Shown: positions 58,194 to 64,000, numbered from the stretch's first letter. The stretch: DNA of 64,000 nt from an uncultured Poribacteria bacterium (GCA_951813565.1 OX638351.1:5088001-5152000); one strand, 5' to 3'. Notes: generated by a model not told the origin, from the sequence alone. Numbers and translations are program-made.

Positions 58194-59033
58194 ATGAAGA
58201 ATTTGATAAGAATTGGCATAGCAGTGCTTATTGCATTCTGCTGGATAATTGGCACAAGTTCTGCCGCTATAAATCCGGTTTCAGTCTGCTGGGTAATTGG
58301 CACGAGTAATGGTGCAATTGATCCGGACAATATCATGGGTATGTGGCTCTTTAATGAAGGGTCTGGTAATACTGCCAAAGATTCGTCAGGTAACAAGAAT
58401 GACGGTAAAATCAACGGTGGTGTTAAATGGGTAGAAGGAAAGTTTGGAAAAGCACTTGAATTTAATGGGTCCGACGGTTGGGTTGAAGTTTCGCATTCAA
58501 ACACTGTCGGGTTTAAAAAAGGCGTTTCCTTCACGATTACCGTCCATTTTAAAGGCACAAAAGTTGGCGGTTCGCTTGTCGGCAAAAACTACGAGGATAC
58601 ATCGCAAGCACTTCCATGGTATCTGCTTTGGAACGGTGGTGGGGACAACAAAGTAACACTTTACCTGCGAAATTCTGCTTCAACAAGTTTTAGGGCAGAT
58701 AGCACAAGCGAAATTGGTGATGACGAGTGGCACTTTGTTGTTGGTAGAGCAGATGCGAGCTCCGGGAAGGCCTCAATATGGATAGATGGTGAGATGGAAG
58801 CCGAAGTTGATTTTGATAAAAATGATGGATATGGTACAAGTGACGGTGTGCTCCATATTGCACGGCACTTCGACCGTTACACTGCTGGGATCATTGACGA
58901 TGTTGCGCTCTTCAATGTCGCCTTAAGTGAAGACGATATGGAAGCTCTCATGAACAATGGTGTTGAAGAAGCTGCCGCCGTTGAACCTGCGAATAAATTG
59001 ACAACAAAGTGGGCAAAAATCAAACGTCAATAG
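58194..59033 (+). CDS. Secreted LamG-like jellyroll protein
   Basis: GMWLFNEG, GKFGKALEF, GIIDDVALFN; tail AVEPANKLTTKWAKIK. Confidence 0.9.
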   Translation: MKNLIRIGIAVLIAFCWIIGTSSAAINPVSVCWVIGTSNGAIDPDNIMGMWLFNEGSGNTAKDSSGNKNDGKINGGVKWVEGKFGKALEFNGSDGWVEVSHSNTVGFKKGVSFTITVHFKGTKVGGSLVGKNYEDTSQALPWYLLWNGGGDNKVTLYLRNSASTSFRADSTSEIGDDEWHFVVGRADASSGKASIWIDGEMEAEVDFDKNDGYGTSDGVLHIARHFDRYTAGIIDDVALFNVALSEDDMEALMNNGVEEAAAVEPANKLTTKWAKIKRQ

Positions 59034-59054: not shown

Positions 59055-59861
59055 ATGTTATTACCTAAAAGTGTGGGAATTACGTTTGCAATTCTGGTTG
59101 GTGCTTTTTTGTTGATTGCACTGCCCGGCTACGCTGAGTTTGGCTTTGAGAATATCACGGGGATGTGGCTTTTTGACGAAGGTGAAGGCACAGTTGTAAC
59201 GGACTCATCAAACGAAGATAATGAAGGTCAAATACACGGCGCGAAGTGGGTAGATGGTAAATTCGGCCAAGCACTTGAATTTGATGGGACAGACGATTGG
59301 GTTGAAATTCCACACTCCGACAGTGTTGGGTTTGAAGCAGGAACATCATTCACCTTGACACTGCATTACAAAGGCACCGCGGTTGGTGGTTCGCTTGCGG
59401 GCAAAAACTATGAAGATAAATCGCAAGTTTTACCTTGGTATATGCTTTGGAACGGTGGCGGTGATAAAAAGATAACCTTCTTTTTACGGGATGCTGCTGG
59501 AACGAGTTATAGACCACAAAGCACATCCGATATCGCTGATGACAATTGGCATTTTATTGCTGGCATAGCAAACACTGACACAGGCAAGGCGAGTTTGTGG
59601 GTAGATGGTAAAATGGAAGCCGAAATTGATTTTGACACTGACAGCGGATATGGCAATAGCGAAGGTGTTTTTCATATCGGACGACATTTTGACCGTTATA
59701 CCGCTGGCATCATTGACGATATAGCGCTCTTTAATGTTGCTTTAGATGAAAGTGATTTGCAGTCAATTATGAACGACGGTCTTATGACTCTCACGGCTGT
59801 TGAAGCTGCTGGTAAACTTACAACGACGTGGGGCAGCGTTAAACAGCGTATCGCACGATAG
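59055..59861 (+). CDS. Secreted LamG-like jellyroll protein (tandem paralogue)
   Basis: Highly similar to the upstream gene; tail AVEAAGKLTTTWGSVK. Confidence 0.9.
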   Translation: MLLPKSVGITFAILVGAFLLIALPGYAEFGFENITGMWLFDEGEGTVVTDSSNEDNEGQIHGAKWVDGKFGQALEFDGTDDWVEIPHSDSVGFEAGTSFTLTLHYKGTAVGGSLAGKNYEDKSQVLPWYMLWNGGGDKKITFFLRDAAGTSYRPQSTSDIADDNWHFIAGIANTDTGKASLWVDGKMEAEIDFDTDSGYGNSEGVFHIGRHFDRYTAGIIDDIALFNVALDESDLQSIMNDGLMTLTAVEAAGKLTTTWGSVKQRIAR

Positions 59862-60083: not shown

Positions 60084-61491
60084 CGCAATAAGTAGTTTTG
60101 GACTTGCAACAAAATTTTAAAAATCGCTCTAAATCCTTGTTTAGACTACATTTTTCGCTTGTTTTAATTGTGAAAATATGATACAATTTAGATAAGAAAT
60201 TAGAGGGCTGTTAACCCCCTAATTGAACACAAAAAAGCGAGTTGCTTTTCTGGCATTCTGTCTTATCTAGTTATTGTATCAGAAACCTGTCAGAAAAAGC
60301 AACTCCTAAAAAGGAGTTTTCTGATGGATTTGTTGAAAGTGATGGAACGATTCCCTGATCAAGAGAGTTGTATTGAACATTTAGAGAGTATTCGGTGGAA
60401 GGGTAAACCGAAGTGTCCACATTGTGATTGCCTAAACGTGGCAAGACGAACAGAAACGGAATTGGGACGCATCGGACGCTTGCAATGCCACGATTGCACT
60501 GCTACTTTCAAGGTTACTTGTGGCACGGTGTTTCACGGGACAAAGATAGCACTTCAGAAGTGGTTTTTGGCTATCTCGTTGATGATGAATGCTAAAAAGA
60601 GCCTTTCAAGTCATCAGTTGGCAAGAGATTTGGACTTGGATCAAAAGACTGCGTGGCGTATGGGAACATGTATCCGTGCTGAAATGGCTAAAGATAATAT
60701 CCTCTTACAAGGTATCATAGAGGCTGACGAAACTTATGTCGGGGGTAAACCTCGCAAAGCGAACAAAAAAGAGGACAGGGATCCTGCTAAGCGTGGGCGT
60801 GGCACTGATAAAGATGCTATCATCGGAGCGATTGAACGCGGTGGGAAAGTTGTGGCAAGACTCGCAAAAGATTTGACGGGACGGACTATCTTAAATTTTA
60901 TTCGCGAAGTTGTTAAAGTAGATAAATCGCAGTTGATGACTGATGAGTATAAAGCTTATCTCACACTCGGTAAAGAGATGAAGCACCATATCATTGATCA
61001 TCAAGAACAATTTGTTGACGGTGATGTCCATACCAATACGATTGAAGGCTTCTGGTCACTTCTCAAACGTGCTTGGTATGGAAGTCATCACCACTATTGG
61101 ACTGAATACACGCCCCTATATGTCGCAGAGGCGTGCTATAAATACAACTATAGGAGCATTGAGAGCATTTTTGATAAGTTTGTCAATGAGAGTATGAGAT
61201 GAAGACTCACTCAACGATGGCAGAAAAACTTAAAGAATAAGGTCTTGACAAGCTGGACCACACTAATATCACAACGGCAAAACGATTAGAAGAATTGTCT
61301 GCCGTTGCAAAGTATCTATCAAGCGCGCTCAACTTTTATACCGATGTGAGTTGGAGGGGCAGAAGTTCTCACAGATTAGAGTTAGACATTAGTCTTCGCC
61401 GTTTAGTGCTTTTCCGAATTCTCATACCCTATTAAGTATAAATTTCCATAACGCTTAAGGGCTTTTTGCAAGTCCAAAACTACTTATTGCG
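60084..61491 (+). mobile_element. IS1595-family insertion sequence
   Basis: Perfect 26-bp TIR CGCAATAAGTAGTTTTGGACTTGCAA; 8-bp TSD AAAAATAA. Confidence 0.93.
60324..61202 (+). CDS. IS1595-family DDE transposase
   Basis: Zn ribbon CPHC/CHDC, HTH, IEADETYVGG, MTDE, HTNTIEGFWSLLKR. Confidence 0.95.
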   Translation: MDLLKVMERFPDQESCIEHLESIRWKGKPKCPHCDCLNVARRTETELGRIGRLQCHDCTATFKVTCGTVFHGTKIALQKWFLAISLMMNAKKSLSSHQLARDLDLDQKTAWRMGTCIRAEMAKDNILLQGIIEADETYVGGKPRKANKKEDRDPAKRGRGTDKDAIIGAIERGGKVVARLAKDLTGRTILNFIREVVKVDKSQLMTDEYKAYLTLGKEMKHHIIDHQEQFVDGDVHTNTIEGFWSLLKRAWYGSHHHYWTEYTPLYVAEACYKYNYRSIESIFDKFVNESMR

Positions 61492-61534: not shown

Positions 61535-62635
61535 ATGAAACAGAAACTGACACACCTCGCATTGGCATTTTTGCTATTGGCTGCAGTCGGTTGTGGAACT
61601 TCAGGGGATACGACGGACCCTGTCCCAATTGAAATCATGACAGGCTCCCTGCAGGGAGAGGTAGAATCTATTAAAGGCGTTTCAATTCAAGTCCGCTTGC
61701 TAAAAGCGGGCCAACTCGTCTCACAAGCCGAAGCACTTGGCAGTTACGAACTTGCAGAACTTGAAGAAGGGGATTATACGATACAAATTTCAGCCAAAGG
61801 CTTTGAAACTGTAGAAATGAACGTGACTGTCGTTGCGGGTCAAACCGTTTCATTGGACAAAGTGACACTCGTGGCATTGGCAGCGCCTGTATCACATCTG
61901 CGCGGGGTTTTAACCGACTCGGAAACGGGGGATACACTTTCTGATGTACTTGTCCAACTTACGGATAAGGCAGGTGAAGAGTACGAAACGTTAACAACGA
62001 AAGACGGTGTTTTTACCTTTGAGAACCTCCCTGTTGACCAAGTATTTACCTTGATGGTTCAGCATAAAGGTTATGAAGATAACACAGTTGATGTGGACCC
62101 GATTTCTGCCAATGAAACCTTTGAACTGGATGTAGCACTCAAAGCAATACCTGAACCTGAGGAGTTAGACCCAGGTCAAGGACTAAGTATTGGTAGTCAA
62201 GCACCGGAATTTCAGTTGTCTGATGGTAATCGTAACGAACACGCGCTTGCGGACTATGTCGGCAGCAAAAATGTGGCAATTGTTTTTTATCGCGGTGGTT
62301 GGTGACCGTTCTGTCGTGGACAACTCGGAGAGTTGCAAGATAATTATGATAAATTTAAAGCTGCAGGAGCAGAACTCATCGCAATTAGTTCCGATAGCGT
62401 AGGGGATACAAAACAGACGATTGATAAAGAAGGTCTCAAATTCGTAGTACTCGCTGATAACGACAGAGAGGTAATTAACGCTTACAACGTTGTTGATCCC
62501 GGTAACAACAGAATAGCTCGGCCTGCATCCTATATCATAAAACAAGATGGAACTATTGCATGGAAATTTCTTGATGTTCGCTTAGGAAATCGTGTGCCAA
62601 CTGCAGAGATTTTAGAGGAATTGGGTAAGCTTTGA
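61535..62635 (+). CDS. Putative selenoprotein: lipoprotein with carboxypeptidase-regulatory-like domains and an AhpC/TSA (Prx-like) domain, UxxC
   Basis: Lipobox LAAVGC; in-frame TGA at 62303 gives FYRGGW-U-PFC and the frame continues as the 62333..62635 ORF. Confidence 0.85.
62321..62335 (+). promoter_or_regulatory. Candidate SECIS apical hairpin
   Basis: CAACTC-GGA-GAGTTG, 15 nt after the UGA. Confidence 0.6.
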
Positions 62636-62855
62636 TAAACCTGTAGATGTCAATTTAGCGTTGATTTAAAGGTAGCAGGCACGCGCCGCGTGCTGTCTCC
62701 GCCTCATATGCTTTGGTATAATACGGCACACGGCGTGTACCTACTACTTTGCATACGCATTTATCGGCGTTGCAAATGCTTCCACAAGAGGTTGTGCTCC
62801 TTAACTCCTTAAATTAACATTTATGAGGTAGAACGCAGCGAAACCCAATTTATAT

Positions 62856-63151
62856 GAGGGTGTGCATAAATAATTCCGATGTTAAATATGCGCTTAAAGG
62901 TAGTCCGCACACGCCGTGGGTTTCCGTCCACAAGTTCAAAGAGGCGCAGCATGCCACACGGGGAATGCCATAAGGCATTCGGACCCGGTGAATGACTAAA
63001 TGTCATTCATACCGTTGATTTCTTGATTTGGCGCATGCTGCGTTGATTTGGCAATGAATTGCGCGACTACAAACGCATTTCTATAAATCAAGCGGCACCT
63101 GGCGTCTGTCCCTGTCTGTGTTGATGCGCCAAATATTTATGCACACCCCTC
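62856..63151. mobile_element. MITE family E copy 2
   Basis: TIR GAGGGTGTGCATAAATA / TATTTATGCACACCCCTC; 8-bp TSD ATTTATAT. Confidence 0.85.
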
Positions 63152-63202
63152 ATTTATATAGTATTTCAAATGCACATTAATACAAAAGAAAATTTATTAT
63201 TT

Positions 63203-64000
63203 ATGAAACAGATACAGATAATCTTTGGACTGGCGTTTTTGCTGTTGGCTGCATTGGGTTGCGGAACAACAGATAATCCTATCGGTGACGGAGAAAAAAT
63301 TGATACTTTAACAGGCACACTGCAAGGGGAGGTGCAGTCAATTGAGGGAGTAGCAATTCAGGTGCAGTTGTTAAAAGATGGGCAACTCGTAGCGAATGCC
63401 GAAGCACATGGCAGTTACGAACTGAATGATATTGAAGCAGGAGATTACACACTCCATATATCAGCCAATGGATACCAAGAAACGGAACTCAACGTCACTG
63501 TCGTTGGGGGAGAAACTGTCTCATTAGATAAAGTGTCACTTGTTGAATTAACAATGCCTAAACATGATTTGGATCCAGGTGAAGGATTGGTAATCGGCAG
63601 CCAAGCCCCAGAATTTGAACTGCCTGATGAAAATGGTGAGTTACACTCCTTTGCAGACTATATCGGAAATAATAAGAAGGTGGTGCTGGTCTTTTACCGA
63701 ACCGGTGGCTGAGGACTTTGCACAACACAACTCGTGGAGTTGCAAGAGAATTACGAAAAAATTCAAGCTGCAGGCACAGAACTTTTCGCTATCAGTTCAG
63801 AAAACGTGGCGTTAACGCAAAGGACAGTTGAAAACCATGGACTCAAATATCCTGTGCTCTCTGATAACAAAAAAGAGATGATTATTGCTTACAATGTGCT
63901 CGATCCATATAATACGAGAATTGCACGCCCTGCCGCGTATATTATTACGCCAGATGGAAAGGTTGCTTGGAAATCACTTGATACTGCGGGCGTGCGGGTA
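63203..64000 (+). CDS. Second putative selenoprotein paralogue (lipoprotein + Prx-like UxxC), partial at the window end
   Basis: Lipobox LAALGC; TGA at 63710 gives FYRTGG-U-GLC; frame stays open to the end of the window (QLVELQENYEKIQAAG...IARPAAYII). Confidence 0.85.
63728..63742 (+). promoter_or_regulatory. Candidate SECIS apical hairpin
   Basis: CAACTC-GTG-GAGTTG, 15 nt after the UGA. Confidence 0.6.

Follow-up and report, generated by a model that had tools for sequence, protein, structure and literature searches.

The stretch of DNA analysed here (the window) comprises 64,000 nucleotides from an uncultured Poribacteria bacterium (GCA_951813565.1, OX638351.1:5088001-5152000). Its last part carries two neighbouring paralogous genes, each interrupted by one in-frame TGA (Table 1). 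As the initial annotation had noticed, this TGA falls in both on the first Cys of the CxxC motif of an AhpC/TSA domain, and the thioredoxin fold goes on in frame beyond it: the Pfam AhpC-TSA profile (PF00578) spans the site with E values of 5e-33 in gene 1 and 4e-31 in gene 2, the domain scores being 114 and 108 bits for a cut-off of 26. The two proteins are 60% identical in the redox domain and 69% in the beta domain. An ORF lister starts gene 2 at position 63170; the ATG at 63203 was chosen over it because the lipobox Cys then becomes residue 20, as in most orthologues. Both genes show 0 differences from a contig of a public run, which probably consists of DNA and may be the source sample.

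Table 1. Features of the two genes (window coordinates) and in-frame TGA codons of other predicted selenoprotein genes of the genome
Feature	Position	Strand	Description
Gene 1	61535..62635	+	ATG at 61535; 366 aa with TGA as U257; stop TGA-TAA at 62633-62638; lipoprotein signal, then two CarboxypepD_reg-like beta-sandwiches, then the AhpC/TSA domain (U257-P-F-C260)
Predicted lipoprotein signal peptide, gene 1	61535..61594	+	Ends at lipobox Cys20; by sequence inspection
Two acidic, Cys-free beta-sandwiches, gene 1	61643..62143	+	Residues ~37-109 and ~122-203; PF13620 x2; all-beta in the model
Predicted Sec257, gene 1	62303..62305	+	In-frame TGA; motif FYRGGW-U-PFC
SECIS-type hairpin, gene 1	62321..62335	+	CAACTC-GGA-GAGTTG; stem +16..+30, loop +22..+24 after the UGA
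Pro330, gene 1	62522..62524	+	Position of thioredoxin cis-Pro / Prx catalytic Arg in the 2cx3 alignment; precedes strand 331-335 of the model
Intergenic spacer	62640..63200		Mosaic of short repeats with many copies in the genome (as many as about 110 overlapping BLAST hits)
Gene 2	63203..64000	+	ATG at 63203; 278 aa, U170; ends at genome C1:5152039, 39 nt past the window's end; lipoprotein signal, then one beta-sandwich, then the AhpC/TSA domain (U170-G-L-C173)
Predicted Sec170, gene 2	63710..63712	+	In-frame TGA; motif FYRTGG-U-GLC
SECIS-type hairpin, gene 2	63728..63742	+	CAACTC-GTG-GAGTTG; distance from the UGA equal to that in gene 1
Other selenoproteome TGAs, G000:C1 (first 8)	4611836, 660557, 4232556, 1806488, 4462206, 4462776, 360117, 1111075		
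Other selenoproteome TGAs, G000:C1 (last 8)	4948687, 3262206, 4296954, 4297404, 782925, 2064961, 1853941, 4298908		

The products had been described as lipoprotein-anchored fusions with one or two carboxypeptidase-regulatory-like domains, and two lines of evidence agree with this, lipidation being a prediction. Pfam CarboxypepD_reg matches two stretches in gene 1 and one in gene 2, and Cys20 is invariant in 35/35 aligned proteins, preceded, on inspection, by a basic N-terminus and a hydrophobic stretch. Judged from these signals, export as a lipoprotein is highly probable. In the AlphaFold2 model (pLDDT 88.6, pTM 0.53), a tether of low confidence is followed by two domains made entirely of beta strands and by a redox domain of alpha/beta type, and the model's low pTM together with the high pLDDT is consistent with domains that may be independent of each other. 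Relatives have 0, 1, 2 or 3 beta domains and keep the redox domain; some bear other C-terminal extensions, and a signal peptide or lipobox is present in most of those inspected. CarboxypepD_reg is a common module in this genome (34 matches). A Foldseek search with the beta string gave a weak match to a Gram-positive surface protein, and the beta domains, searched by sequence against the PDB, gave a single weak match, to a TonB-linked receptor (E 0.008). Shallow searches for an intact Cys version of the fusion found none among 69 matches from 250 candidates, none in the 14 scanned of 150 representatives, and none among the genome's 25 further CarboxypepD ORFs.

The UGA of both genes is almost certainly read as selenocysteine. 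The genome encodes selA (E 2.5e-182), selB (E 1.2e-102) and selD, all three above curated cut-offs, as well as tRNA-Sec (ARAGORN: tRNA-SeC), which selB adjoins; an in-frame TGA also lies inside the genome's own selD. The TGA column is occupied by Cys in 138 of the 150 best distant representatives, the remainder having Ser (4) or Trp (1) or being unaligned there (7); the unaligned ones that were inspected are downstream halves. A whole-protein query found matches in 37/41 related genomes, with one TGA in every match that includes the redox domain. The redox-domain query matched in 113/121 genomes of the phylum, and exactly one TGA is present in 150/150 of the matches listed, 147 more lying beyond these. 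U and the Cys three residues further on (Cys+3) are invariant in 52/52 extracted genes, and pN is equal on either side of the TGA (0.23 upstream, 0.22-0.23 downstream). Six weak redox-domain matches have no TGA and lie in frames of 159-165 aa. In a single genome (G060, 95% complete), neither selA nor the family was recovered with these queries.

The opposite reading takes the TGA for a genuine stop, the genes for split or decayed ones and the hairpin described below for a by-product of the peptide QLxEL. The databases seem to speak for it: the best 120 of 533 database proteins all end just before U, covering at most 70% of the query, which is the splitting by gene callers that the initial annotation had predicted, and the downstream half, of 100 aa, is annotated by gene callers as a protein of its own. 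Moreover, a TTG or GTG lies 8-10 codons past the TGA. Such a split, however, would lose Cys+3 and cut the fold in two, and the TGA is never replaced by TAA or TAG in any of the 52 genes. Nor does the downstream half give any sign of its own start: an SD-like motif upstream of the +10 TTG is absent in 52/52 genes, and an ATG occurs within 40 codons past the TGA in just 1/52. Finally, the synonymous sites of the stem are nearly frozen, and they covary. A true stop is thus hardly credible. One relative's copy (L118/L140, G102:C2:3547893-3549069) has an apparent frameshift, with short frames flanking the TGA and the hairpin kept, which reflects either an assembly error or decay.

Both genes carry the inverted repeat CAACTC-NNN-GAGTTG at the same distance from the UGA, as first reported: TGA-N15-CAACTC-NNN-GAGTTG occurs exactly twice in the window, a number reached by 0/100 shuffles (shuffle mean 0.00). 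A scan of the whole genome (5.4 Mb) gave three matches, the window pair and one paralogue, a lipoprotein without beta domain (C1:4467097). The initial annotation had cautioned that the encoded QLxEL peptide could by itself account for the hairpin. This caveat is largely answered by the covariation, the frozen synonymous sites and a within-genome control, and the hairpin is under a real RNA constraint, more than a by-product of QLxEL. In 70 distinct UxxC genes, all 420 of the 420 stem cells are paired, while slid-window controls are paired to 16-45%. Two-sided changes (A-U to G-C, C-G to G-C, C-G to U-A) affect 20 cells, at 3 of the 6 pairs, and 0/500 shuffles reach as high; since the genes are kin and not independent, these 70-gene counts overstate the number of events. 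Nine distant loci (UxxS, BCP-type, off-target TGA), one truncated gene and three duplicates had been left out before the count. RNAalifold recovers the identical stem unprompted. At synonymous sites, pS is 0.078 in the stem versus 0.67-0.79 in the flanks (21 gene-1 orthologues), and codon choice in the stem across the 52 genes is CTC in 50/50, TTG in 52/52 and GAG in 51/52, whereas a Glu 14 codons further on is encoded by GAA in 44/48.

How often the peptide would create the stem by chance can be estimated. Given QLxEL and the codon use of the genome, six Watson-Crick pairs are expected in 0.7% of cases (2.5% with G-U), and the stem arises at 0/45 QLxEL sites within the genome's long ORFs (1/45 with G-U). 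Among the best 150 distant representatives, 17 Cys proteins keep QLxEL; plasmid sequences gave matches in 162 records, 25 of them listed at 30-37% identity, and the within-genome QLxEL control, together with the covariation, stands in for the DNA of the Cys homologues that have QLxEL.

The bacterial SECIS model given in PMC13188914 has a loop of 3-9 nt, a stem of 4-16 bp and a G in loop position 1-2, at 16-37 nt from the UGA. The hairpins fit this geometry, with a 6-bp stem, loops GGA and GTG and a spacing of 21 nt, and a G stands at loop position 1 or 2 in every one of the 70 aligned genes. The same source sets a minimum free energy of -7.5 kcal/mol or below. The hairpin of gene 1 folds with -8.2 to -8.3 kcal/mol; that of gene 2, when constrained, has -5.4 to -6.7 kcal/mol and falls short of -7.5, although the folding window used in that paper may differ. 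In its full context, gene 2 has a rival fold of lower energy, the hairpin having a pair probability of about 0.01, and the hairpin becomes dominant (0.89) only with the first 11 nt occluded. At three other UGAs of the genome (one in a TlpA-like gene and both sites of a double-BCP gene), picked through protein similarity alone, the stem sequences are different and the loop is likewise at +22. An Rfam search gave no family above threshold. A cytoplasmic-looking UxxS subfamily (W-U-P-N-S; L132, L141-L144 and G000:C1:782925) has no +16..+30 stem, its predicted loop starting at +14 to +17; the UxxS genes (n=5) leave the stem described here unused, with 3-4 of 6 pairs.

The genome has a large predicted selenoproteome, whose members were selected by visual inspection of 82 filtered candidates and of BLAST hits (Table 1). 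It includes SelD, FdhA, MoeB, DUF3179, three HMA UxxC proteins, two Trx-like proteins (one of them dockerin-fused), an ArsC-like protein, a double-Sec BCP, a UxxS Prx-like protein, a TlpA-like protein, DUF5069 and one unassigned short frame. DUF5069 receives 0 mentions in the available text of PMC13188914, and its 2026 family table, as available, does not contain a further family with the motif C-U-G-S-G and a conserved in-frame TGA. The latter consists mostly of frames of 350-700 aa (G000:C1:2856737(+), 2853863(+) and about 1718061-1718303(-); further loci L108, L109 and L148-L153). It is present in 16/21 genomes, in up to 9 copies in tandem arrays, with one TGA in 75/76 listed matches, and has no match in Pfam, NCBIfam or PDB. 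The family may resemble eukaryotic selenoprotein N.

On the strength of its FYRGxWCPxC motif and of passages in PMC3514251, the redox domain may belong to CDD PRX_like2 (cd02970). The Prx-like UxxC family to which the two proteins belong is already known; their stalked lipoprotein form is new as far as the papers searched go. A Prx-like thiol:disulfide oxidoreductase (PF00578, UxxC/UxxU) is listed in Table 1 of PMC13188914 as predicted with high confidence, and that table names no experimentally tested function for it; 'Prx-like 1' of the GOS survey comprised 225 marine sequences (PMC2398784, Table 2), and the family is treated also in PMC9312934. Like these published proteins, those of Poribacteria have PF00578, a UxxC motif with Sec first (UPFC, UGLC), Cys homologues and a bacterial SECIS. 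Unlike them, as far as the published passages go, they add a lipoprotein signal, 0-3 CarboxypepD_reg beta-sandwiches and an organization as tandem paralogues. The words 'carboxypep' and 'lipoprotein' occur 0 times in the available text of PMC13188914, and the fusions named in the corresponding passages of PMC2398784 are others, with no CarboxypepD_reg fusion. The latter fusion with a Prx-like selenoprotein is absent from the literature passages searched, though supplements could list it, and the passages found on Poribacteria selenoproteins or selenocysteine, or on carboxypeptidase regulatory-like domains with thioredoxin, do not describe this protein.

Other known systems resemble the two proteins in part. 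ResA, TlpA and CcmG (PDB 1st9, 3c71; NF002854) share the thioredoxin fold with a Prx-like insertion, the CxxC-type dyad, the cis-Pro and a membrane tether (TM-score to target 0.81-0.85; E 4e-14), but here Sec takes the place of the attacking Cys, a lipid anchor and beta-stalk are present, and gene 1 scores 69.5 bits against a cut-off of 170. The closest fold is that of BCP/PrxQ and AhpE (PDB 3hjp, 2cx3, 1xvw), with TM-scores to target of 0.86-0.91, an rmsd of about 2 A for 3hjp and the AhpE chains, and Cys260 at the peroxidatic position; yet the Pro/Thr/Arg triad of these enzymes is missing and the score is 58.9 bits for an NCBIfam cut-off of 140. With the redox domain alone, Foldseek places Bcp4 (E 4e-13) and AhpE ahead of ResA (1e-10). 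Gene 1 also scores 51.4 of 120 bits with the SelL-related redox protein (NF040769) and 20.2 of 300 bits with WAxxUGC (NF041054), and no NCBIfam model exceeds its cut-off for either gene. Sec in lipoproteins has a precedent in SaoC and SaoX (Haft and Gwadz), whose SECIS is described as a 7-bp stem with a GGU loop (bioRxiv 2022.07.06.499078); their folds are unrelated, however, and according to the same source they sit in a Firmicutes ABC-transport context.

What these proteins do may be read from their active site. When the protein is aligned to the BCP 2cx3, U occupies the Ser/Thr column of the Prx motif, the peroxidatic Cys is matched by Cys260 and the catalytic Arg by Pro330, so that the PxxxT/SxxC motif and catalytic Arg of true peroxiredoxins are absent. 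The label 'Prx-like', used in the initial annotation, thus holds for the fold but not for the chemistry, as Sec and Pro occupy the Thr and Arg positions. Pro is found at its position in 27/35 Sec proteins and 123/150 distant relatives, Ala or Ser replacing it in 8/35 rows, and Trx and ResA-type proteins are described as having a cis-Pro where peroxiredoxins have Arg (PMC2757866). Arg329 is present in 31/35 rows and Arg353 is invariant; these two might stand in for the Prx Arg. PRX-like proteins have been inferred in PMC3514251, in a passage that invokes no experiment, not to be disulfide oxidoreductases. Since the peroxiredoxin triad is absent, we regard a disulfide reductase as a rather better guess than a peroxidase on this active-site anatomy.

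Our preferred picture, which we hold with somewhat more than even confidence, is that each gene encodes one Sec lipoprotein reducing disulfides of envelope proteins outside the cytoplasm. Conservation argues strongly that SelB and Sec-tRNA would bind the 6-bp hairpin with its G-containing loop, 16-30 nt past the UGA, and insert Sec. The chain would then be exported and, to judge from the lipobox, lipidated at Cys20, and in the model its one or two acidic beta-sandwiches may form a stalk and so determine how far the redox domain reaches. By analogy with the active sites of ResA and TlpA, the Sec selenolate would attack the substrate disulfide, to be resolved by Cys+3, and the three-domain DsbD that the genome encodes could re-reduce the selenenyl-sulfide.

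The same selenoproteins could instead be envelope peroxidases, in which peroxide oxidises Sec and Cys+3 resolves, a GPx-like chemistry on a Prx scaffold that would shield the symbiont surface from oxidants. Selenolates do react with peroxides. The nearest solved folds and sequences are the BCP/AhpE peroxiredoxins, Arg329 and Arg353 are conserved, and the Pro is missing in those 8/35 rows; SelA and SelB are, moreover, reportedly present in the majority of sponge symbiont bins and absent from their references (PMC5649159). Against this, the PxxxT/SxxC...R triad is missing, Sec-containing peroxiredoxins carry TxxU rather than UxxC, and the genome encodes a separate double-Sec BCP with a signal peptide and Sec in the TxxU position. 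We consider a peroxidase function unlikely. A still less probable proposal gives the UxxC motif another job: it would act on secreted proteins as a disulfide isomerase or oxidase, or bind and detoxify soft metals, with the beta-sandwiches binding the substrate instead of serving as spacers. The inner dipeptide does vary among paralogues (UPFC 26, UGLC 6, UGSC 5, UGAC 3 and others, n=52), which would tune the redox potential. Conservation is the same in the beta domains (63-64%) as in the redox domain (63%), and HMA UxxC and ArsC-like selenoproteins exist in the genome. On the other hand, metal binding is reportedly disfavoured by a cis-Pro (as cited in PMC2757866), and the redox domain is kept whether 0, 1, 2 or 3 beta domains are present.

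The neighbourhood of the genes suggests a possible partner for the proposed disulfide reductase. The start of a DUF362 gene overlaps the stop of gene 2; its product has two conserved Cys and, by eye, a twin-arginine-like motif, which makes export by the Tat pathway likely. Of the 39 relatives with DUF362, 29 have it no more than 110 nt downstream from a member of the family; in 2 the distance is 1.5-2.4 kb, and in the other 8 it lies elsewhere. Coordinate comparison gives adjacency in 24/24 same-genus genomes and 5/5 of genus g5. DUF362 is placed in the LarA clan (PMC11770544). This linkage suggests, speculatively, that the DUF362 protein is a candidate client of the selenoprotein. The spacer between the two genes lies outside the selenoprotein element and varies in length among relatives. 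Contigs from RNA runs (n=3, shares 0.05-0.12) fall mostly on intergenic repeats and on the upstream IS; gene 1 received a single piece, of 151 nt, and gene 2 none. As the upstream IS is covered too, this coverage is evidence neither for nor against expression. A scan for promoters and terminators gave results at chance level.

Directly upstream of gene 1 lies a transposase of the IS1595 family (ISXO2-like; window 60324-61202, element about 60100-61490), with some 16 near-identical copies in the genome; it is absent from this place in the relatives' loci inspected. Further upstream are two tandem genes for secreted LamG-domain proteins (58194-59033 and 59055-59861), a synteny found in most relatives inspected. 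Their C-terminal K-L-T-T-x-W motif, possibly a sorting signal, recurs at the end of a distant family member (L137).

It is very likely that these two neighbouring Poribacteria genes, cut at the UGA in databases, are hidden selenoproteins of a stalked lipoprotein form typical of the lineage; the chemistry and the family themselves are not new. The finding corrects an annotation error that is phylum-wide: the named entries among the best 120 of 533 are called 'hypothetical' or 'carboxypeptidase regulatory-like domain-containing protein', and because all 120 stop at the UGA, a redox family present in 113/121 sampled genomes goes unrecognised. It also provides an unusually clean series of in-frame SECIS elements, in which RNA and protein constraint are separable. 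One may go further and imagine a selenium-based extracytoplasmic reduction system of Poribacteria, in which lipid-anchored UxxC reductases fed by DsbD, with 0-3 stackable beta spacers, are dedicated here to activating the co-transcribed, Tat-exported DUF362 (LarA-clan) enzyme. This is a long shot; if true, it would give a first function both to the Prx-like UxxC family and to DUF362, along with a naturally occurring series of 70 minimal SECIS elements, 15 nt long and covarying. More generally, the two genes point to redox control that depends on selenium in the cell envelope of this phylum, whose members are mostly sponge-associated.
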